This document shows, one piece after another, positions 8,949-36,006 of a DNA stretch of 64,000 nt. How positions within the stretch are numbered: position 1 is the stretch's first letter; the number at the start of each line of letters is the position of its first letter. The DNA is taken from IMG/VR virus record IMGVR_UViG_3300027804_000038, positions 32,001-96,000 of that record, one strand, 5' to 3'. This DNA comes from a virus. Lineage: Duplodnaviria; Caudoviricetes. The notes under the pieces are model-generated. The model ran no database searches. It saw nothing but the letters and a program-made list of their open reading frames with translations, and was not told where the DNA came from. The position numbers were made by a program, and so were the translations under genes.

Positions 8949-8985
8949 ATGATTAAATTAATATATTTATAAAATAAAAAAAACT

Positions 8986-14744: not shown

Positions 14745-15362
14745 GTGGGAGAACAATTAATTATCACCATAATAACGTCAATAACTTCAATATTTGTGGC
14801 GTTAATAACTGCGGGAGTTTTCAGAAAAATAATGGATAAGAAAAAAGATGAAAACTCAAAGAAAAGACTAATAAAGCAAATTGAAAAAGATGAATTAATT
14901 CATTTTACATTAAGGGAAGTAAGAAGAAAATATAACGCAGATAGATTATATTTGATACAATTCCATAATGGTGGAAGTTTCTACACCAACTCACCAATGC
15001 AAAAAGCTTCGGTAACATATGAAAGATGTTCTGATGGGTTAGAAAGAGTATCTGAAAAACTACAAAATATTTTTGTTAGTCACTACACATGGTTCATTAA
15101 ACATTCAATAGACAAACAAATGTTTTATTTAAATTGTGAAGATATTGAAGATGTTACAACTAAGGCATTATTAAGAAAATTTGGGACCCAATCAACCGCT
15201 TCTTTACCAATATATGACAATAATAATCAACTAATTTCAATTATGGTATTAGATTGGGTTTTTAGTGAGATTGGGGAACATTATATTGATAATGATAATT
15301 TCAATCAACACTTTATTGAAGAATTTATATTAGATGTTGATTCAGTAAAAAATCTATTATAA
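14745..15362 (+). CDS. N-terminal TM plus GAF-like domain protein (T4 holin T-like architecture)
   Basis: GTG start; TM aa 4-26; ADRLYLIQFHNG...S.TYE...SLPIYD GAF-like pattern. Confidence 0.6.
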   Translation: MGEQLIITIITSITSIFVALITAGVFRKIMDKKKDENSKKRLIKQIEKDELIHFTLREVRRKYNADRLYLIQFHNGGSFYTNSPMQKASVTYERCSDGLERVSEKLQNIFVSHYTWFIKHSIDKQMFYLNCEDIEDVTTKALLRKFGTQSTASLPIYDNNNQLISIMVLDWVFSEIGEHYIDNDNFNQHFIEEFILDVDSVKNLL

Positions 15363-16115
15363 AAATCCGTTACTCATTCTTCCACTGTGTGATGAAATCC
15401 CATAAAGTTTTTCATTGGTCATAGATACTAGTATTGTTTCTCCCTCGCTAGCATTTTGAGCCCTTTCAGATGACACTCTATCGTCATCAGAACTTAATAA
15501 TATTGTTAAAGGGTCTTTTGTTATTTGATTAAGTAAACGACTACCAATTTCGTGGTCAACTTCTACAAGTTCAATTTGTTGGAATAGTTTATTATTAACA
15601 CTGGCGTATTCGTATATTGTTACTTCGTATGTATCATAATCTTCTATTTCTCCAGTTCCATCACATGTTTCACAATCAACTGTCCCTGTGCCGTCACACC
15701 ATTTACATGACAATGTACCGTCTCCATCACACTCACCACAAGAATCTCCATCTTCATCTTCACCAGTCCCATCACATGTGTTACAATCAGATTGACCGTT
15801 ATTACAATCGTGACAATCTTCACTTCCTTGTCCATAACAATCATCACATTCATCACTTGTAAAATTAGTATTTACCTCCATAGTTTTAAATGCGAATATA
15901 TTTGATTCTACAAATTTTAATGCGGATACAGGTTCTTTACCTAAATTAATTAGATAAGTTAAAAAACATAATTTAAGAGAATTAAAAGGTCCGAGTCCTT
16001 GAACCATTTGTTTACCAAAAGAATCATGGATTAAATAATTATATATGTCATCTGGAGTTTTTCCTCGAAATTTATTATCTGCGAATTTTTTTGATAAACT
16101 TATTATTTTTTCCAT
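15357..16115 (-). CDS. Protein with six DnaJ-type CxxCxGxG zinc-finger repeats and no J-domain
   Basis: CDDCYGQG, CHDCNNG, CNTCDGTG, CGECDGDG, CKWCDGTG, CETCDGTG; no HPD motif. Confidence 0.8.
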   Translation of the reverse strand: MEKIISLSKKFADNKFRGKTPDDIYNYLIHDSFGKQMVQGLGPFNSLKLCFLTYLINLGKEPVSALKFVESNIFAFKTMEVNTNFTSDECDDCYGQGSEDCHDCNNGQSDCNTCDGTGEDEDGDSCGECDGDGTLSCKWCDGTGTVDCETCDGTGEIEDYDTYEVTIYEYASVNNKLFQQIELVEVDHEIGSRLLNQITKDPLTILLSSDDDRVSSERAQNASEGETILVSMTNEKLYGISSHSGRMSNGFL

Positions 16116-16147: not shown

Positions 16148-17728
16148 ATGAATAATAAAAAAGTTTTAAACGAAATTAATAGAAATCGTAAAATCATGGG
16201 ATTAGATTTGATAGAATCGTCTAATGAGAATGCGAATTCATTTAGAAATCATTTAAGTGGTTTAGGATATAAATCAAAATCTAACATGGATGATGGGGGT
16301 GATTTAAATCCAAAATTCACTTCTTATATTAAATTAGTATCTTCCGAATTAAAAAAACAATTACCTGATTTAAAATTTATTTTTGGTGCAGGACATGACA
16401 AATGGCACAAAAAATTCGGTAAATCTAGACATAATGATGGCAGAGCAATTGATATTACAATATTAAAGAACGGAGATAAATATGTTTCAGAAAAAGATAA
16501 AGATATTCTTGACGCAGTATCAATGGTACTATGTAAAATGAGAAAAAATCTTATCGGATTTACTTTTATAGATGAATACAGATTCCCAAGTGCTGGCTCC
16601 ACTGGAGGACACTACCACCTTTCTTTTTCAGAGAATAATAAAGATGAACACACATCTACACCAAAATTTTGTGGGACTCTAAAATTAGATTCTAAATTTA
16701 AATTTGATTTTGGTAAAGATACTGATAAGACCGAAAGAAAAAAAGAAAAAGAAACGTCAGAACCAAGTGTAATAGACAAACTATTGGATACTTTTGGATT
16801 AAAAGAACTTTCAGATGTTGACACCGATAATCCCGACACTTTCATAAATAAAGTTAAAGATGTTTTTGGCGACGATAGTGTTGAGGATGATAATGGTGAT
16901 TTTACAATTTTGGGTATTGGGTTAGAAGATATGGTATCTGCGGCTAAAAAACTATTTGGAGAAAGTGTTAATAATAGAAAAATATTAACCGAGAAAGAGT
17001 CTAAAGTTTTAAATAAATTTAGCGGTGATATCCAAAACGGACCAAAATACCATGGGTCAAGACCTTTAGGAAATTGGCAATCAGATAATGCTTGGGATTT
17101 ATTTGCCCCTGCAAACACACAGTGGAATTCAATAACTAAAGGTAAAGTCACTAAAGTCTATAATACAGGTAAAAAGATAGGAAAGATATATGGTACACAA
17201 GTTTCTGTCCAAGGAATGGATGGGTTTCCTGATATATTTTATACTCACTTGAAAGATGTTACAGTAGAACCTGGAGACATTGTAGATATTGGAACACCAG
17301 TTGGTAAAGTGTCTGAATGGGGGTTGAGTAAATCAACTCATGTTCACGTAGGACTTCCATATGGCGAGCATATTCAAGACTTATTATCTTCAGACTATAA
17401 TAAACCTAAAGGTGGGTCAGGTTCATTTTTTGACTTTAGTAAAGATGAGGATGAAACTAAGACAACTAAAAAAGAGCCTGATTTAATTGATAAATTATTA
17501 GATACTTTTGGTATTAAATCAATTTCGGATATTGAAACTGAGAAAGATTCTGAAGATTTTGCAAACAAAGTCTCTACTGTTTTTGGGGATGACAAAGTTT
17601 CAAAGAAAGATGATAATAGTTTTGAAATATTTGGATATAGTTTAGACGAATTAATCGATAAAGCCAAATCTTTGTTTGAACAAAGATTAAATGAAGAAAT
17701 AAATAAAATGAAAAAACCCCTTAAATAA
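16148..17728 (+). CDS. Two-domain cell-wall peptidase: M15-like domain plus M23-like domain, each followed by a homologous ~68-aa module
   Basis: SRHNDGRAID...GGHYHLS (M15/LAS); NAWDLFAP...FYTHL...GDIV..GTPVG...HVHVG (M23); duplicated IDKLLDTFG...VFGDD modules. Confidence 0.8.
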   Translation: MNNKKVLNEINRNRKIMGLDLIESSNENANSFRNHLSGLGYKSKSNMDDGGDLNPKFTSYIKLVSSELKKQLPDLKFIFGAGHDKWHKKFGKSRHNDGRAIDITILKNGDKYVSEKDKDILDAVSMVLCKMRKNLIGFTFIDEYRFPSAGSTGGHYHLSFSENNKDEHTSTPKFCGTLKLDSKFKFDFGKDTDKTERKKEKETSEPSVIDKLLDTFGLKELSDVDTDNPDTFINKVKDVFGDDSVEDDNGDFTILGIGLEDMVSAAKKLFGESVNNRKILTEKESKVLNKFSGDIQNGPKYHGSRPLGNWQSDNAWDLFAPANTQWNSITKGKVTKVYNTGKKIGKIYGTQVSVQGMDGFPDIFYTHLKDVTVEPGDIVDIGTPVGKVSEWGLSKSTHVHVGLPYGEHIQDLLSSDYNKPKGGSGSFFDFSKDEDETKTTKKEPDLIDKLLDTFGIKSISDIETEKDSEDFANKVSTVFGDDKVSKKDDNSFEIFGYSLDELIDKAKSLFEQRLNEEINKMKKPLK

Positions 17729-17737
17729 GGGGTTTTT
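17712..17737. terminator. Bidirectional terminator between the peptidase gene and tmRNA
   Basis: aaaaacccctt-aaat-aaggggttttt. Confidence 0.85.
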
Positions 17738-17740
17738 AAT

Positions 17741-18133
17741 TGGTGGAGATGCTGGGGCTCGAACCCAGGTCCAAAAAAGTTTACCATAAAACACTACACG
17801 TTTAGGTCATTGTTTTTCTAAACAATCCGAAACTTCACAATTCCCTTATTTTATAGTGGTTCGGTTTACTGAGAACTAATCTTCCACTTGTTTCTTTTCG
17901 GGTAGAAACCACACCTTTGTAAAGACTTCTGTTGCAAGGTTATATGTCCACCGACCCCTTAGTAGGTTAATCCCAGATTAAGCTACAGATACTTCTTCAG
18001 TACGGATAAGACCGATAGTCTGAAGTTTGTTGATAACGTTGCCGTTTATAGTTCAAGCCAGTTATACAGGGTTAGCTTAGCCCCGACATGCGTTTTATGA
18101 CAAATCATCTCTGTCAAATCCAAAAACATCCCC
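17741..18133 (-). ncRNA. ssrA: tmRNA (393 nt)
   Basis: 5' GGGGATG pairs with 3' CATCTCC-ACCA with a G3:U alanyl determinant; GGATTTGACAG D-like motif; T arm CTGGG-TTCGAGC-CCCAG; pk1-like region followed by TAAAC-GGC resume context. Confidence 0.95.
17978..18043 (-). other. tmRNA tag reading frame GNVINKLQTIGLIRTEEVSVA* (21 codons)
   Basis: GGC resume codon after TATAAAC, open to TAA at 17980-17978; codons (AAC, ATC, CGT, GGT) match the highly expressed capsid gene set. Confidence 0.8.
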
Positions 18134-18160
18134 AAATATCAAAGAACTACGTTACAAAGA

Positions 18161-18168
18161 TATAAATA
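18161..18168 (-). promoter_or_regulatory. TATTTATA box upstream of tmRNA
   Basis: tataaata on the + strand, 27 nt upstream of the mature tmRNA 5' end; a second box (18187-18194, +) faces ORF 18209. Confidence 0.5.
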
Positions 18169-18208
18169 GTTTAATGATGTTACAAGTATTTATAAAAAAA
18201 ACTTTTTA

Positions 18209-19270
18209 ATGTCTTTATATAAAGCTCTTATAGAATTCCGTGATAATGAAACAAACCCTGTTTGGGTTAAAGAAGCAGATTACGATGGAATTATAACCAT
18301 AAAAAAAGTATCAAGTAAAAGTAGAGGAAAATCTTTGGTGATATTAAAATTTTCAGGTAATGAATACTTTGATTTATTTAGACCTGGAGATGACGGGTAT
18401 ACTAATAATGATTATTTGTTTAGTGTTGTATTTGATAGGTATTATAGATATGACTATGTTTTTATGGACTCATACAGTTCTGACGAAGAATTTAGATATG
18501 GTGGAATATATCATCTAAATGATGTTAATTTATCAATGTTAAAAGAATGTGTATTAATTATGAATCCTTCATTTGATAAAACAACACAAGACTTAGAATT
18601 TTGGGCTCTTGAATTTATTAAATTGTTTGAGTCTGAGTCCGACGAGATTGGTGCAGATTACATTAATGAGTATGACGAAGCATTGGTTACAGGTTTAAAA
18701 GAATATCTTTTGCAAAAAGTATGTGGAGTATTTGATACTTATGGTATTTTTGAAAGTAAATGTGGTTATGAATATTTTACAACAGTTAATGATATTATTA
18801 AAATTTGGGATGAATCTGGTGCTAACGAAAACGATAAGTTTCTTGATATGATTAAAAAATTTATTAAAAATAAAGATTTAGAAATTGATGATGATTTGTT
18901 TGAAGACTATCACTCATATTTTGATAGTAGAAATTTTGATTCGGATGCGTACAATAGAAATTCTGAAAGGATTTTAGACTCATTAAAAGATAGACTTTTG
19001 GAGGAAGATGAATTAGGGTTTATTGAAAAAAATAGAGAGATTTTAAGATTTTTAGATAAATTAGGAATTAAGGTAGATACGTTTCATAGTTTCCCAAAAG
19101 AAAAATCATTTGGTTCAAAATACGGTAAAATATTTAGGGTTAGAAAAATTGAAAACGGGTTACTTACCGTTCAAATAAAAAAACAAGGAGGGAATTATGA
19201 AACAGAACAATTTAAAATACCTCTTGATGAATTTAAAAAATTATTATATAATCCTGAATTATTTGACTAA
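18209..19270 (+). CDS. Acidic/aromatic hypothetical protein
   Basis: 353-aa ORF, no recognisable motif. Confidence 0.75.
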   Translation: MSLYKALIEFRDNETNPVWVKEADYDGIITIKKVSSKSRGKSLVILKFSGNEYFDLFRPGDDGYTNNDYLFSVVFDRYYRYDYVFMDSYSSDEEFRYGGIYHLNDVNLSMLKECVLIMNPSFDKTTQDLEFWALEFIKLFESESDEIGADYINEYDEALVTGLKEYLLQKVCGVFDTYGIFESKCGYEYFTTVNDIIKIWDESGANENDKFLDMIKKFIKNKDLEIDDDLFEDYHSYFDSRNFDSDAYNRNSERILDSLKDRLLEEDELGFIEKNREILRFLDKLGIKVDTFHSFPKEKSFGSKYGKIFRVRKIENGLLTVQIKKQGGNYETEQFKIPLDEFKKLLYNPELFD

Positions 19271-19302: not shown

Positions 19303-20115
19303 ATGAAAAATTTAGATTTCTTTAAAAGACTTTTATCGGTACCAACACACACTTATCAGGAAGATAAAATGATTGATTTCTTGTCTGAACATTTAAAAAA
19401 TCGTGGATACGACTTTTTTATTGATGACATGGGTTCAATTTATGTAACCAAAGGAGAATTATCTGAAGGCGAATATTACCCATGTGTTGTTTCACATACC
19501 GACACAGTACATAAATTAGACACAATTAATGTAATTGAAGAAATTCTACCAAATTCGAAGGGAGAAGATTCCTTATGTTTAAAGGCCTATAACGATTTTG
19601 ACGAACCAACTGGTATTGGTGGTGATGATAAAAATGGTGTATTCGCTTGTCTTGAAATATTGGATAAATTTGAAGTTATTAAAGCTGCCTTTTTTGTGTC
19701 TGAAGAAACTGGATGTCACGGCTCAAAAAATGCCAATGACGAATTTTTTGAAAATGTTGGTTACGTTATAGAGTTTGATGCCCCTTCTGATTACATGGTT
19801 ACTGAGTATTGTTACGGTGTGAAAATGTTTGAGAAAGAGTCTGAATTTTTTAAAACTGCTGACAAAATCCTAAATGAATGTATGTTGTCCGAACCAAAAT
19901 ATATGGTTCATCCTTATACAGATGTGTTCGCATTAAAGAAAAAATATGATTTCGCATGTATTAATTTTTCAATCGGATATCATAACTATCACACTAAAAA
20001 TGAATACGTTTGTATTGAAGAAGTTGAGGCAGGAATTAAAGCTGGTGAAAATCTAATCTCTTCCCTTGGCAAGGTTAAGCATATAATGAATCATCCTTCG
20101 ATGATTAACTTTTAA
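19303..20115 (+). CDS. Co-catalytic Zn aminopeptidase-like protein (M28/M42/M20 clan)
   Basis: SHTDTV, GGDDKNG, SEETG, EFDAP, GYHNYHT metal-ligand motifs. Confidence 0.85.
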   Translation: MKNLDFFKRLLSVPTHTYQEDKMIDFLSEHLKNRGYDFFIDDMGSIYVTKGELSEGEYYPCVVSHTDTVHKLDTINVIEEILPNSKGEDSLCLKAYNDFDEPTGIGGDDKNGVFACLEILDKFEVIKAAFFVSEETGCHGSKNANDEFFENVGYVIEFDAPSDYMVTEYCYGVKMFEKESEFFKTADKILNECMLSEPKYMVHPYTDVFALKKKYDFACINFSIGYHNYHTKNEYVCIEEVEAGIKAGENLISSLGKVKHIMNHPSMINF

Positions 20116-20120
20116 AAAAA

Positions 20121-20141
20121 AAGGGGGATTTATTCCCCCTT
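20121..20141. terminator. Bidirectional terminator between convergent peptidase and clpC
   Basis: aaggggga-tttat-tccccctt with A and T tracts on each side. Confidence 0.8.
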
Positions 20142-22175
20142 TTTCTTTCTTACCCTTGGTTTCTTTTCTGACGTTATTTCTTCATACAAAACAGATTCAC
20201 CATCTATTTTTATTAAATATTTTTTGTCAGTAACTATATTTGTTTTTAAAACTTCATCCGATATAAAATCTTCAATTTTTTCTTGTATTGCTCGTTTCAG
20301 AGGTCTGGCACCATAAACCTCATCAAAACCGACTTTAGAAATAAATTCAATAACACTCTCATCAAACTCTACAAAATATTTGATGAGTTCTAATCTAGAT
20401 TTAAGTTTATCAATCTCAACATTAACAATTTTCTTAACATCTTCATCTTTTAAAGTATTGAAAACAATAACTTCATCAATCCTGTTAATAAATTCAGGTG
20501 CAAAATAATTTTTAAGTTCTTTAGTTAACATTGATTTTTTAACTTCTTGGTCAGTGTAAACATTATTTGTTTTACCAAACCCAATACCTGCACCAAAATC
20601 TTGCATTTTCTTCACCCCAATATTTGATGTCATAATTATTAGACAGTTTTTAAAATTAATTTTTCTTCCAAAACTATCTGTCATATATCCTTCATCTAAG
20701 AGTTGTAAAAGAGATGAAAAAATATCTTTATGGGCCTTTTCAATTTCATCAAATAATACTACAGAATAAGGTTTAGTCTTAACCTGTTCGGTAAGTTGAC
20801 CTCCTTCTTCATAGCCGACATAACCTGGAGGTGAACCAATTAGTCTTGAAACTGAATGTTTCTCTTGAAACTCACTCATGTCAACTCTTATTAGATTCTC
20901 GTCACTTCCAAATATTTGTTTAGCAAGTTCTTTAGCCAATAAGGTCTTACCGACACCAGTCGACCCTAAAAATATAAACGAACCAATTGGTTTGTTAGGG
21001 TCTTTAATACCTAATCTATTTCTACGTATTGACTTTGCAATTATTGTGATTGCTTCGGATTGACCAATAACCGAATTAGTTAAAGTTTCTTCCAAGTTAA
21101 TCAACGCTCTTGAGTCGTCAACTGAAAGTTTTGTAATTGGTATTTTAGTCATATTTGATACAACTTCATAAACTAAATCAATTACAATTGACTGTCTTTT
21201 TGTTTTTAATTCCTCCTCAAATTTTTGTTTTTCAGATTCTAATTGGCTTAGAATCTTTTTTTCTCTGTCTCTTAGTTGTGCGGCCATTTCATAATTTTGT
21301 TTTTTCACAACCAAAAGTTTGTCTTCTCGTATTTTAGCCGACTCTCTTTTTAGTTCGTCGATAATCTCAGGATGTTTAACATCAACTTGAGCTCTCGCAC
21401 CTACTTCATCTAAAATATCAAATGCTTTATCAGGGAACTCTCTATCAGTAATGTATCTATCGGCCAATTCAACACATGTTGATAGGATTTCATCAGTATA
21501 CGTTACTTTATGATGATTTTCATATTTTTCTTTAACATTCTTTAGTATTTGTAGAGTTTCTTCTTTTGTTGAAGGTGAAACAATAACTTTTTGAAACCTT
21601 CTATCTAACGCCCCATCCTTTTCTATATTTTTTTTAAACTCATCTAAGGTAGTTGCTCCAATACATTGAATTTCTCCTCTTGATAGTGCGGGTTTCAATA
21701 TATTAGATGCGTCTAACGAACCCGAAGCGTTACCCGCCCCAACTAAAGTGTGAATTTCATCGATAAAAAGTATAACATCTGGACTATTCTGTATTTCTTC
21801 CAAGATAACCTTTAACCTTTCTTCAAATTGACCACGGTATTTTGTTCCTGCAACTATTGAGTTTAAATCTAAAGATAAAATTCTTTTGTCAACTAAACTT
21901 CTAGGACAATCCCCATCAAAAATTTTCATGGCCAAACCTTCAACTATTGCTGTCTTACCACAACCAGGTTCTCCTATTATAATTGGATTATTTTTTTTCC
22001 TTCTCGATAAAATTTGAGCAATTCTTAGAATTTCGGACTCTCTGCCAACTACAGGGTCTAACTTACCTTCCTCAGCGAGTTTAATTAAATCTCTAGAAAA
22101 ATTATCTAAAACAGGAGTTTTCGATTCCGTTGATTTTGGTCTTTCTTTTTTTCCTTCGTCCATTGAATCTGTCAT
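20130..22175 (-). CDS. clpC: ClpC-type AAA+ unfoldase lacking the N-terminal Clp-repeat domain
   Basis: Starts at LDNFSRDL...LDPVVGR; two Walker A/B sets (GEPGCGKT/LFIDE; GSTGVGKT/VLFDE); UVR coil QNYEMAAQLRD; ClpP-docking IGF loop (GIGFG). Confidence 0.92.
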   Translation of the reverse strand: MTDSMDEGKKERPKSTESKTPVLDNFSRDLIKLAEEGKLDPVVGRESEILRIAQILSRRKKNNPIIIGEPGCGKTAIVEGLAMKIFDGDCPRSLVDKRILSLDLNSIVAGTKYRGQFEERLKVILEEIQNSPDVILFIDEIHTLVGAGNASGSLDASNILKPALSRGEIQCIGATTLDEFKKNIEKDGALDRRFQKVIVSPSTKEETLQILKNVKEKYENHHKVTYTDEILSTCVELADRYITDREFPDKAFDILDEVGARAQVDVKHPEIIDELKRESAKIREDKLLVVKKQNYEMAAQLRDREKKILSQLESEKQKFEEELKTKRQSIVIDLVYEVVSNMTKIPITKLSVDDSRALINLEETLTNSVIGQSEAITIIAKSIRRNRLGIKDPNKPIGSFIFLGSTGVGKTLLAKELAKQIFGSDENLIRVDMSEFQEKHSVSRLIGSPPGYVGYEEGGQLTEQVKTKPYSVVLFDEIEKAHKDIFSSLLQLLDEGYMTDSFGRKINFKNCLIIMTSNIGVKKMQDFGAGIGFGKTNNVYTDQEVKKSMLTKELKNYFAPEFINRIDEVIVFNTLKDEDVKKIVNVEIDKLKSRLELIKYFVEFDESVIEFISKVGFDEVYGARPLKRAIQEKIEDFISDEVLKTNIVTDKKYLIKIDGESVLYEEITSEKKPRVRKKKGE

Positions 22176-27245: not shown

Positions 27246-27253
27246 TATTTATA
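27246..27253 (+). promoter_or_regulatory. TATTTATA box 3 nt upstream of the terminase ATG
   Basis: Lies directly after a terminator, so a dedicated promoter is needed here; the spacing implies a leaderless mRNA. Confidence 0.6.
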
Positions 27254-31662: not shown

Positions 31663-31710
31663 TTTTATTGGACTATTTATAAAAAATAGAATTTAAATTA
31701 AGTTTTCAAT

Positions 31711-33507: not shown

Positions 33508-33530
33508 TATTTATAAAATAAAATTATAAA

Positions 33531-34241
33531 ATGAGATTTGGAGTAATAAAAACATTAATTGAAAACAAATTGGTTGAATCTTTTGTTAATAAAAGATTAT
33601 CAACCGACATGTCTTTTTTTCAAGACAAAATTTTAAAGGATAAATCATTTAAAAAACACATGTTTGTATATGATACTTTAAATGAAAATAAATCTTTAGA
33701 TTCTGAAACTGCAAATTATTTAATTGATGATTTAATTAACGATTTAAAAAATAATCCTTTGTCTGAAAATGTAATTAAAACAATAAAGAGATGGACAAAT
33801 GGAATAGTTAAAGAAAATAATTATTCTGTGATAGATAATTTGGTATACGGAGATGACTTACATCCTGAAAAAAAATCTATTGCTAGAAAACAAATAGTTG
33901 AATCGTTAGGAAAAAATAAGGTTATTAAAGAATCAAAAAGTAAAATACCTTTAAAGTCCATGGTTAAAATTGCAAACACAACAATTGCAAAAAAACTTGA
34001 GAATCTATCAGAATCTGATAAGGAAAAAATATTAAAGGTTTTAAAATCAGACGATGAAATTAAAGAAGAATTTAAAAAATTAAAAGAGGATACTCTAAAT
34101 AAAATTGATAGGTTAATTTCAGAATCACCTGAAGATTTGACACAAACATTGATTGAAACTAAAGAAAGATTAGGTAAATCAGATTTTTCAAAAAAAGAAT
34201 ATATTAAACTTATTAATTTAAATGACGGTTTAGTTCTCTAA
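33531..34241 (+). CDS. Hypothetical head-module protein
   Basis: 236 aa helical; TATTTATA at 33508-33515. Confidence 0.75.
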   Translation: MRFGVIKTLIENKLVESFVNKRLSTDMSFFQDKILKDKSFKKHMFVYDTLNENKSLDSETANYLIDDLINDLKNNPLSENVIKTIKRWTNGIVKENNYSVIDNLVYGDDLHPEKKSIARKQIVESLGKNKVIKESKSKIPLKSMVKIANTTIAKKLENLSESDKEKILKVLKSDDEIKEEFKKLKEDTLNKIDRLISESPEDLTQTLIETKERLGKSDFSKKEYIKLINLNDGLVL

Positions 34242-34415
34242 ATTCTTTTTTTCTTTATAGATTGCATTTTTTAAAGTCTGACGAGTTATGTCAGACTTTT
34301 TTTTATATGTTTTTCTATCTTGTAATTGCGATATTAATTTAGTTTTAATAACTTTTGATTTAAAAGATTTTAAGGCTTGCTCAATATTACCTTTTTTAAT
34401 TGGGACTATTAACAT
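34230..34415 (-). CDS. rpsU: Ribosomal protein bS21
   Basis: 61 aa basic; V.I..GNIEQALKSFKSKV...L..RKTYKKKS..R pattern of bS21; lies in the head module as in known bS21-encoding Bacteroidota phages. Confidence 0.8.
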   Translation of the reverse strand: MLIVPIKKGNIEQALKSFKSKVIKTKLISQLQDRKTYKKKSDITRQTLKNAIYKEKKNLEN

Positions 34416-34932: not shown

Positions 34933-34960
34933 GTTTAATATTTATAAAAAAAAATATTAA

Positions 34961-35917: not shown

Positions 35918-35945
35918 AAAAGGAGTCGATTGACTCCTTTTTTTA
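35918..35945 (+). terminator. Intrinsic terminator
   Basis: aaaaggagtc-gatt-gactcctttt followed by a T tract. Confidence 0.85.
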
Positions 35946-36006
35946 TTTATACCAATTAAAAATAGATTTTTTTGTCATAACGATATATTTATCAATAAAA
36001 CTTAAA

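Follow-up and report, generated by a model that had tools for sequence, protein, structure and literature searches.

Tags added by transfer-messenger RNA (tmRNA) are the textbook bacterial degron. Genes for tmRNA are also present in about 2.3% of sequenced phages (PMC9004378, PMC4131195, PMC7162821), among them the mycobacteriophage Bxz1 group, Bacillus phage G, pelagiphages and methylophages with two-piece forms and the huge phages of Al-Shayeb et al. (2020), but these viral genes have been catalogued and hardly analysed. A bacterial tag with an altered reader is that of Mycoplasma and Mesoplasma, where the ssrA tag of 27 residues is read by Lon instead of ClpXP, according to the account of Gur and Sauer (2008) given in PMC8403727. 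Here, we analysed a tmRNA gene (ssrA) in a stretch of 64,000 nucleotides (the window) that corresponds to bases 32001-96000 of the IMG/VR record IMGVR_UViG_3300027804_000038 (293,850 bp, rated complete by CheckV). As the record is complete at this size and the terminase, portal and major capsid genes all lie inside the window, the virus is a jumbo phage.

Phage tmRNAs were known already, as a first-pass annotation of this DNA had stated and the published cases bear out, and so were long non-canonical bacterial tags; what seems new is a phage tag selected across a whole clade and encoded beside a ClpC gene. A clade of abundant freshwater jumbo phages has rewritten the tag into one that is longer than that of the host, unlike it and conserved in its own right, with its gene beside a stripped-down ClpC. 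None of the literature searched describes a family of phage-specific tags selected at the peptide level, or a conserved link between a phage tmRNA tag and a phage Clp unfoldase lacking the N domain.

The tmRNA gene and its tag reading frame

ARAGORN detected a single tmRNA in the window, and the Rfam model RF00023 matched it over all its positions (1-374) with 120.8 bits against a gathering score of 47 (E 1e-46). The following parts were assigned:

17741-18133, minus strand: one-piece tmRNA (ssrA) of 393 nt (ARAGORN and Rfam RF00023)
18106-18133, minus strand: 5' half of the tRNA-like domain, with the acceptor strand GGGGAUG including G3 and the D-loop analogue (ARAGORN; G3 stands opposite U in ...CAUCUCCACCA)
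17741-17779, minus strand: 3' half of the tRNA-like domain, with the T arm, the acceptor strand and the encoded CCA (ARAGORN; the T arm covaries)
18054-18084, minus strand: H-type pseudoknot 1, just upstream of the resume codon (Rfam structure line and covariation)
18044-18050, minus strand: resume context TATAAAC, the -1 triplet region (ARAGORN resume consensus; the same in Flavobacteriales tmRNAs)
17978-18043, minus strand: tag frame, with the GGC resume codon, 21 sense codons (GNVINKLQTIGLIRTEEVSVA) and a TAA stop (ARAGORN and frame conservation)
17967-17981, minus strand: helix 5 hairpin (UUAAUC/GAUUAA, six pairs) enclosing the stop codon (read from the sequence, and covariation)

The acceptor stem (GGGGAUG/CAUCUCC) carries G3:U70, the alanine identity pair, and the CCA end is encoded. 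When 24 diverse members of the tmRNA family were aligned (mean column identity 57%), RNAalifold predicted 49 pairs, 36 of them with compensatory double changes, which were located in the long helix 2, pseudoknot 1, the T arm and one 3' hairpin. The stem of pseudoknot 1 consists of five pairs (alignment columns 53-57 with 69-73), at each of which 3-15 sequences were double-changed. As judged from this alignment, the tmRNA is under structural selection. Some family members carry insertions of 20-40 nt in the region of pseudoknots 2-3, giving tmRNAs of 413-425 nt (loci L453, 13199-13623, and L109, 10700-11115, both plus strand); one of the insertion-bearing genes uses TGA as the tag stop, and many such genes were not called by ARAGORN.

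For host comparisons, the Flavobacteriales were taken as the lead for the host group. In 31 sampled Flavobacteriales tmRNAs, either ...CTATAAAC or ...TTTAAAT stood directly before the resume codon, and the phage TATAAAC before GGC is identical to the Flavobacteriales resume context. The resume codon of these 31 tmRNAs was GGC in 21 cases, GGA in 4 and GAC in 5, and at the aligned position of the phage family the same variants were found (GGC 65, GGA 7, GAC or GAT 4). At the other end of the frame, the hairpin around the stop codon covaries, with UUAAUC/GAUUAA in the window and CUAAUC/GAUUAG in relatives. Across the 24 diverse relatives, frame 0 always gave 21-22 residues of clearly related sequence, whereas frames +1 and +2 were broken at varying places, were conserved in neither case and gave a canonical tag in none. 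Thus, the Flavobacteriales-like resume context, the covarying stop hairpin and the sole conservation of frame 0 make the tag frame secure.

The first-pass annotation had proposed an intact tmRNA with a 21-codon tag ending in VSVA. Both parts hold, the first through the ARAGORN call, the full-length RF00023 match, G3:U70, CCA, the T arm and pseudoknot 1, and the second through GNVINKLQTIGLIRTEEVSVA, which lies in the only conserved frame. The annotation had also considered that a resume codon elsewhere might yield a canonical tag, and no frame does so. Therefore, the window almost certainly encodes a real tmRNA with the tag GNVINKLQTIGLIRTEEVSVA.

The capsid-type optimal codons claimed for the tag were confirmed, as 19 of its 21 codons are commoner in the major capsid gene than genome-wide and 14 are the top codon of that gene, the two usages differing for example in ATC (8% genome-wide vs. 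56% in the capsid gene), CGT (10% vs. 77%) and AAC (24% vs. 77%). Such codons fit a need for fast read-through; the exception is the rare GGC resume codon, which is common to phage and host tmRNAs. A CTTCAG/CTGAAG hairpin, also noted at first, is present in the tmRNA of the window but is not conserved, since two of its six pairs are lost in relatives with Ser for Gln at tag position 8.

Contigs that lie on the tmRNA gene were found in lake RNA libraries of three studies, although such libraries can hold DNA. One of 110 nt is identical to positions 17978-18087, a stretch that takes in all of the tag frame and some of pseudoknot 1. The flanking M23 peptidase gene had no cover in these libraries and the neighbouring gene for a 353-aa protein had little, a gap that proves nothing and was not used as evidence of differential expression. 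Another contig (run X15) crosses the 5' end of the tmRNA (18134) into sequence that resembles the 3' end of a further tRNA-like gene (TGGTGGAGGCGGAGGGACTCGAACCC); its source is probably a relative with another upstream neighbour, or an assembly chimera.

The phage tag family and selection on the peptide

Four kinds of search led to relatives of the tag. Two phages with related tags were reached through the M23 peptidase neighbour. A strict pattern, the degenerate back-translation of K-L-x3-G-L-I-R-T-E-E, matched 101 IMG/VR stretches, and the 75 that lay in fetched loci were essentially all short tmRNA tag frames. One further tag variant came from a search with a pattern built on the 5' end of the tRNA-like domain, and the ClpC neighbour gave more diverged members that fall outside the strict pattern, such as GNVLNKMAAIGLIREDAAVVA, GNVLNKMSLAGLIRQDETVSVA, GNVLNKMETLGLLRGSEVTVA and GNTFAKLEAFGLMSAERVAVA. 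The family was thus also recovered without using the tag, by way of the M23 neighbour, the 5' end pattern and the ClpC neighbour. With an nhmmer profile, 138 full-length tmRNA copies (76 unique) were detected in the fetched loci, many of which ARAGORN alone had missed (40 called at first). When the strict pattern was searched in 185,579 bacterial and archaeal species, with one genome each, there were seven matches and none was a tmRNA. On these sequence searches, the tag family is phage-specific.

Among 77 unique RNAs, the window's own included, 34 distinct tag peptides were found, each encoded by 21 codons or, with one more codon in frame, by 22. Their consensus is G-N-(V/T)-(I/L)-(N/A)-K-(L/M)-x-x-(V/I/L)-G-L-I-R-x-E-E-(x)-V-x-V-A, with K6, G11 and the final Ala invariant and N2, L12, I13, R14 and the penultimate Val near-invariant, followed at a fixed place by TAA, TAG or TGA. 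The minimum changes in the tag were 23 synonymous and 20 non-synonymous, where 25% synonymous would be expected at random (p = 8e-5); the pattern-based search may inflate this excess, but the members found without the tag pattern give the same picture. Nucleotide identity was 67% in the tag and 52% in the remaining RNA, and within the tag it was 0.67, 0.82 and 0.50 at codon positions 1, 2 and 3, respectively. The codon-position pattern, the synonymous excess, the in-frame indels and the variable stop at a fixed place together argue that the peptide itself is selected, and the comparison makes it very probable that the tag is a protein-binding signal maintained by selection.

These data also bear on an explanation in which the peptide is irrelevant, the constraint acting on the RNA and the tmRNA only rescuing ribosomes or else competing with or titrating the host tmRNA-SmpB. 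A weak pairing is predicted between the start and the end of the tag frame (columns 106-111 with 166-171), and tmRNA fragments of the type found in phage DS6A have been proposed as SmpB titrators (PMC4131195). However, the predicted pairing has no compensatory changes, and third codon positions vary most and second positions least, which contradicts an RNA-level explanation. The excess of synonymous changes, the indels in threes and the exchange of TAA, TAG and TGA at one place point the same way, and we regard it as very improbable that the peptide does not matter.

Nucleotide identity of the phage tmRNA was about 66% with the tmRNAs of Flavobacteriales and about 59% with those of the other Bacteroidota sampled. 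From 47 Bacteroidota tmRNAs, tags of the host type were extracted (GENNYALAA, GNNNYALAA, GNNDYAMAA and similar, mostly the first two), in agreement with the earlier statement that host-type tags are short and end in ALAA; an Ala-Ala end was present in all 63 bacterial tags sampled, these 47 and 16 others. The canonical ClpX-type Ala-Ala-COOH terminus is absent from the window tag, which ends in S-V-A, and the tags of 33 relatives end in VA in 31 cases, in IA in one and in YAA in one. For E. coli ClpXP, the terminal Ala-Ala-COO- is the most important element, and mutating either Ala raises KM with Vmax largely unchanged (PMC7652416). A penultimate Val would therefore weaken recognition by ClpX without necessarily abolishing it, so that the poor match to host ClpXP predicted at first stands as far as the Ala-Ala rule is broken, but as weaker recognition and not as its loss.

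Searches for a donor or a closer relative were also carried out. With blastn against 401 Bacteroidota genomes, only the 3' tRNA-like end of the tmRNA was matched and no recent donor was identified. Neither blastn nor megablast with the tmRNA and 10 kb around it matched any of the GenBank phages (50,697 records), so that no cultured relative was available. The pattern CTAAACGTGTAGTG, tried as a clue to the origin, matched tmRNAs of Pasteurellaceae and Clostridia plus much unrelated DNA in bacterial genomes and was dropped as uninformative.

Conservation of the peptide implies a recognition signal, as a selected peptide of 21-22 residues must be bound by something, and purifying selection on it across the clade disfavours the idea of a merely failed degron. 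Rescued peptides had originally been suggested to be either redirected to another protease or spared from degradation; sparing through loss of the degron is disfavoured by that same selection, whereas redirection is plausible in view of the Mycoplasma precedent and the linked ClpC. To our knowledge, every characterised tmRNA tag is a degron. Together with the switch from ClpXP to Lon in Mycoplasma, this makes a re-targeted degron the most economical explanation, and we hold with moderate confidence that the tag is a degron.

Other roles can be conceived for a conserved peptide that nothing ties directly to proteolysis, such as sequestration, exclusion from membranes or assembly, signalling or inhibition, or inert products with ribosome recycling as the benefit. 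As read from the sequence, in which an i/i+3/i+4 pattern of hydrophobic residues precedes acidic ones, the peptide could fold into an amphipathic helix, and the fast codons in the tag show that the speed of release matters. Nevertheless, the tags characterised so far are all degrons (PMC8403727, PMC7652416), the hydrophobic-x-hydrophobic-Ala end resembles C-terminal degrons and the only AAA+ protease component of the phage sits in the same module as the tmRNA. A tag that is not a degron is, in our estimate, quite improbable. None of the open reading frames of the phage ends like the tag or has the GLIRxEE core in a comparable setting, and there is thus no sign of natural look-alike substrates.

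The ClpC gene and the neighbourhood of the tmRNA

The phage ClpC mentioned in the first-pass annotation does exist; it is encoded on the same strand as the tmRNA at a distance of 2 kb. The features around the tmRNA gene are:

20130-22175, minus strand: ClpC-type double AAA+ unfoldase without the N-terminal domain, 681 aa (Pfam AAA, AAA_lid_9, AAA_2, ClpB_D2-small)
19303-20115, plus strand: M20-family (PepT/ArgE/DapE-like) metallopeptidase, catalytic domain only, 270 aa (PF01546, E 2e-5; phrog_4191, E 1.5e-32; weak NCBIfam PepT-like matches)
18209-19270, plus strand: 353-aa protein of no assigned family, divergent from the tmRNA and kept in most relatives (24-40% identity across the clade)
18155-18162, minus strand: TATCTTTG, candidate -7 promoter element of the Bacteroidota type (TAnnTTTG), located 22 nt before the mature 5' end (sequence only)
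17712-17737, no strand assigned: bidirectional intrinsic terminator common to the tmRNA and the convergent M23 peptidase gene (11-pair stem, then a T run)

The phage ClpC aligned without a break to residues 150-813 of Staphylococcus aureus ClpC (E 1e-217) and gave no match to Pfam Clp_N, the alignment beginning at residue 150. It retains both AAA+ modules, the short M domain and the ClpP-docking loop, as GAGIGF. All 73 full-length ClpC relatives in phage contigs had 647-687 aa and kept the (I/V/L)GF loop, the first Walker motifs and both pore loops; the ClpC proteins of Flavobacteriales have about 850-880 aa and are 55-58% identical to that of the phage. ClpC and ClpP are a textbook pair. As no ClpP is encoded in the phage genome, in which no SmpB, Lon, S41 protease or RF-1/ArfB domain was found either, the phage ClpC would need the ClpP of the host. 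In the sampled Flavobacteriales, ClpP was present in 39 of 41 genomes and both ClpX and a full-length ClpC in all 41.

In nearly every locus long enough, the same set recurred: the tmRNA, the 353-aa gene (not always), the M20 peptidase, ClpC and a nucleotidyltransferase. The M20 peptidase adjoins ClpC in every locus that reaches that far, and the tmRNA lies 2-5 kb from both in nearly all sufficiently long loci, even where the gene order is altered. A more distant subgroup lacks the 353-aa gene and has the peptidase in inverted orientation, yet its tmRNA is still about 0.3-6 kb from both ClpC and the peptidase. Since ClpC is the only AAA+ protease part encoded by the phage, belongs to the same module and bears the IGF loop, it is the first candidate for the reader of the tag, although we propose it tentatively and consider it, on balance, doubtful.

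Several points weigh against a degron read by the phage ClpC. Linkage in related and largely collinear phages can be inherited synteny and not functional coupling. The huge phages with the nearest GenBank relatives of this ClpC (LR745206, LR756502, LR756508) have no tmRNA linked to it: what they contain is no tmRNA at all, tRNAs alone, or a tmRNA that lies far off, is unlinked and has a doubtful tag. In Bacillus, ssrA tags are usually read by ClpXP and not by ClpC, and ClpC as a rule depends on adaptors bound to the N domain, a part that the phage protein lacks. The tag has kept a terminal Ala after a hydrophobic residue, on which host ClpXP, ClpAP-like enzymes, FtsH or Lon may still act, and one variant has the YAA end. 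Finally, the RNA-library contigs fit an abundant RNA but are not proof of transcription. As for a general pairing of ClpC and tmRNA outside the clade, it was not seen in the three GenBank phages and was discarded.

No Pfam or PHROG family and no usable ESM Atlas entry matched the 353-aa protein. Its AF2 model (pLDDT 87, pTM 0.72) gave only generic helical matches (Z below 6) with Foldseek against PDB and AFDB and with VIA-align, without any SspB-, MecA- or SmpB-like fold, a result that neither supports nor excludes a role as an adaptor.

Such a role is relevant to the main rival explanation, according to which the tag is bipartite. Its V-x-V-A end would feed tagged proteins to a host protease (ClpXP, FtsH, Lon or a periplasmic C-terminal protease), and the G-N...K-L...G-L-I-R-x-E-E part would dock an adaptor or modulator, like AANDENY for SspB in E. 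coli, the phage ClpC having an unrelated job. The host-like first residues and the invariant terminal Ala after a hydrophobic residue would fit this arrangement, as would the ClpX and ClpP found in 41 and 39, respectively, of the 41 sampled Flavobacteriales. An adaptor could moreover compensate for changes at the penultimate position, which raise the KM of ClpXP and not its Vmax (PMC7652416), and a conserved protein without a recognisable fold, that of 353 aa, adjoins the tmRNA. However, no adaptor was identified, the fold searches with the 353-aa protein being uninformative in either direction, and with VA in place of AA in 31 of 33 variants, the tag looks as if it had moved away from the ClpX pocket. 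We consider a bipartite tag improbable, and the non-proteolytic and RNA-level readings less likely than this one.

The strong bidirectional terminator starts three bases past the CCA of the tmRNA. On the other side of the gene, TATCTTTG fits TAnnTTTG, which we take to be the Bacteroidota-type -7 consensus. A late box assigned at first to the tmRNA gene was not supported, as TATAAATA, found at 18187-18194 on the minus strand, occurs 20 times in the window against 20.3 copies expected; this reading was rejected because the copy number equals chance. The reverse complement, TATTTATA, precedes the start codon in several head genes of the plus strand by a few to about 60 bases:

8964-8971, 27246-27253, 31674-31681, 33508-33515, 34939-34946 and 35944-35951 (window positions): copies of TATTTATA

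The TATTTATA/TATAAATA motif has a further copy at 18161-18168, on the strand of the tmRNA gene and 28-35 nt upstream of it. The motif TATTTATA may be a promoter or leader element of the clade's own rather than a late box of the T4 type.

Near the tmRNA, in the window and in many relatives, there is also a gene for a 252-aa protein (window 15357-16115, minus strand) with a weak match to the DnaJ-type CxxCxGxG zinc finger (Pfam E 3e-5, below the cut-off), which could be a chaperone-like partner in this neighbourhood. The phage genome has a GC content of about 29%, and its DNA is present in freshwater and estuary metagenomes of several studies. In the whole genome, ARAGORN detected 25 tRNA genes, none of them for Ala or His, with 23 in a main cluster outside the window (G000:C1, 224881-247422). 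The genome thus has no gene for tRNA-Ala, yet its tmRNA depends on the host alanyl-tRNA synthetase. A homologue of ribosomal protein bS21 is encoded by a 61-aa open reading frame (window 34230-34415, minus strand; Pfam PF01165, E 1e-10) on the opposite strand within the block of head genes. Together, bS21, the 25 tRNAs and the tmRNA represent a heavy investment of the phage in translation.

A proposed pathway and its comparison with described systems

From the intact features of the RNA, we infer activity in trans-translation with the alanyl-tRNA synthetase (AlaRS), SmpB and EF-Tu of the host. The phage tmRNA, most likely descended from a tmRNA of the Flavobacteriales type, would be charged with alanine by host AlaRS through G3:U70. 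Host SmpB would be required, since the phage has none, and with EF-Tu it would deliver the tmRNA to stalled ribosomes in the infected cell, where the ribosome would be freed and (A)GNVINKLQTIGLIRTEEVSVA appended. This tag would combine a host-like start (G-N or G-E), the selected phage core K-L-x3-G-L-I-R-x-E-E and the V-x-V-A end. We further infer the degradation of the tagged proteins and the identity of the reader: the tag would most likely be a degron read mainly by something other than the Ala-Ala pocket of host ClpX, the candidate reader being the phage ClpC, which lacks the N domain and whose IGF loop would serve for docking on host ClpP. The PepT-like peptidase could finish the peptides to amino acids for recycling.

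Taken as a whole, a working phage tmRNA with a re-targeted degron and ClpC as the best candidate for its reader is the best explanation of the data, and we give the combination an even chance. A fully orthogonal pathway, in which the phage tmRNA marks all stalled translation products with a private degron that leads through an adaptor-independent ClpC and host ClpP to the PepT-like peptidase, insulated from a host ClpXP that would read the host tag alone, would be rather unlikely.

Should the phage unfoldase prove to be the reader, the two would form the first tag-and-degrade pair owned by a virus. It would show that a phage can take over protein quality control along with translation, and would provide a compact orthogonal degron-unfoldase pair for synthetic biology, like the Mesoplasma Lon system. 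If host ClpXP reads the tag instead, the conserved extension would still suggest a further adaptor or modulator.

When compared with the ClpC-ClpP systems of Firmicutes and Actinobacteria (ClpC of S. aureus and B. subtilis, ClpC1 of M. tuberculosis), the phage ClpC shares the region of residues 150-813, the short M domain and the ClpP-docking loop, but is without the adaptor-binding N-terminal domain (MecA, phospho-arginine). The tag can be read, like the E. coli ssrA tag with its SspB and ClpX parts (AANDENY and LAA), as a conserved upstream part followed by a short hydrophobic C-terminal part, although the two sequences are unrelated and no SspB-like protein was found in the phage.

The tmRNA itself is similar to those of Flavobacteriales in architecture, length (393 nt vs. 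392-406 nt), identity (about 66%), resume context and resume-codon variants, and in a tag that starts with G-N or G-E. It differs in that its tag has 21-22 residues instead of 8-10, with a conserved core specific to phages and a V-x-V-A end in place of A-L-A-A, and in being encoded by a virus that has no SmpB. Like the phage tmRNAs already known, it is encoded by a complete gene of a large lytic phage that is well stocked with tRNAs and further genes for translation.

Finally, in comparison with the Mycoplasma tag, there is no sequence similarity and the resemblance is one of principle only. Mycoplasmas have lost ClpXP, whereas the sampled Flavobacteriales keep ClpX, ClpP and ClpC, and here the change lies in a phage gene. 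Nevertheless, both tags are long, non-canonical and conserved within their lineage, and the Mycoplasma tag, in the account cited above, is the accepted case of a tag re-targeted to another AAA+ protease.

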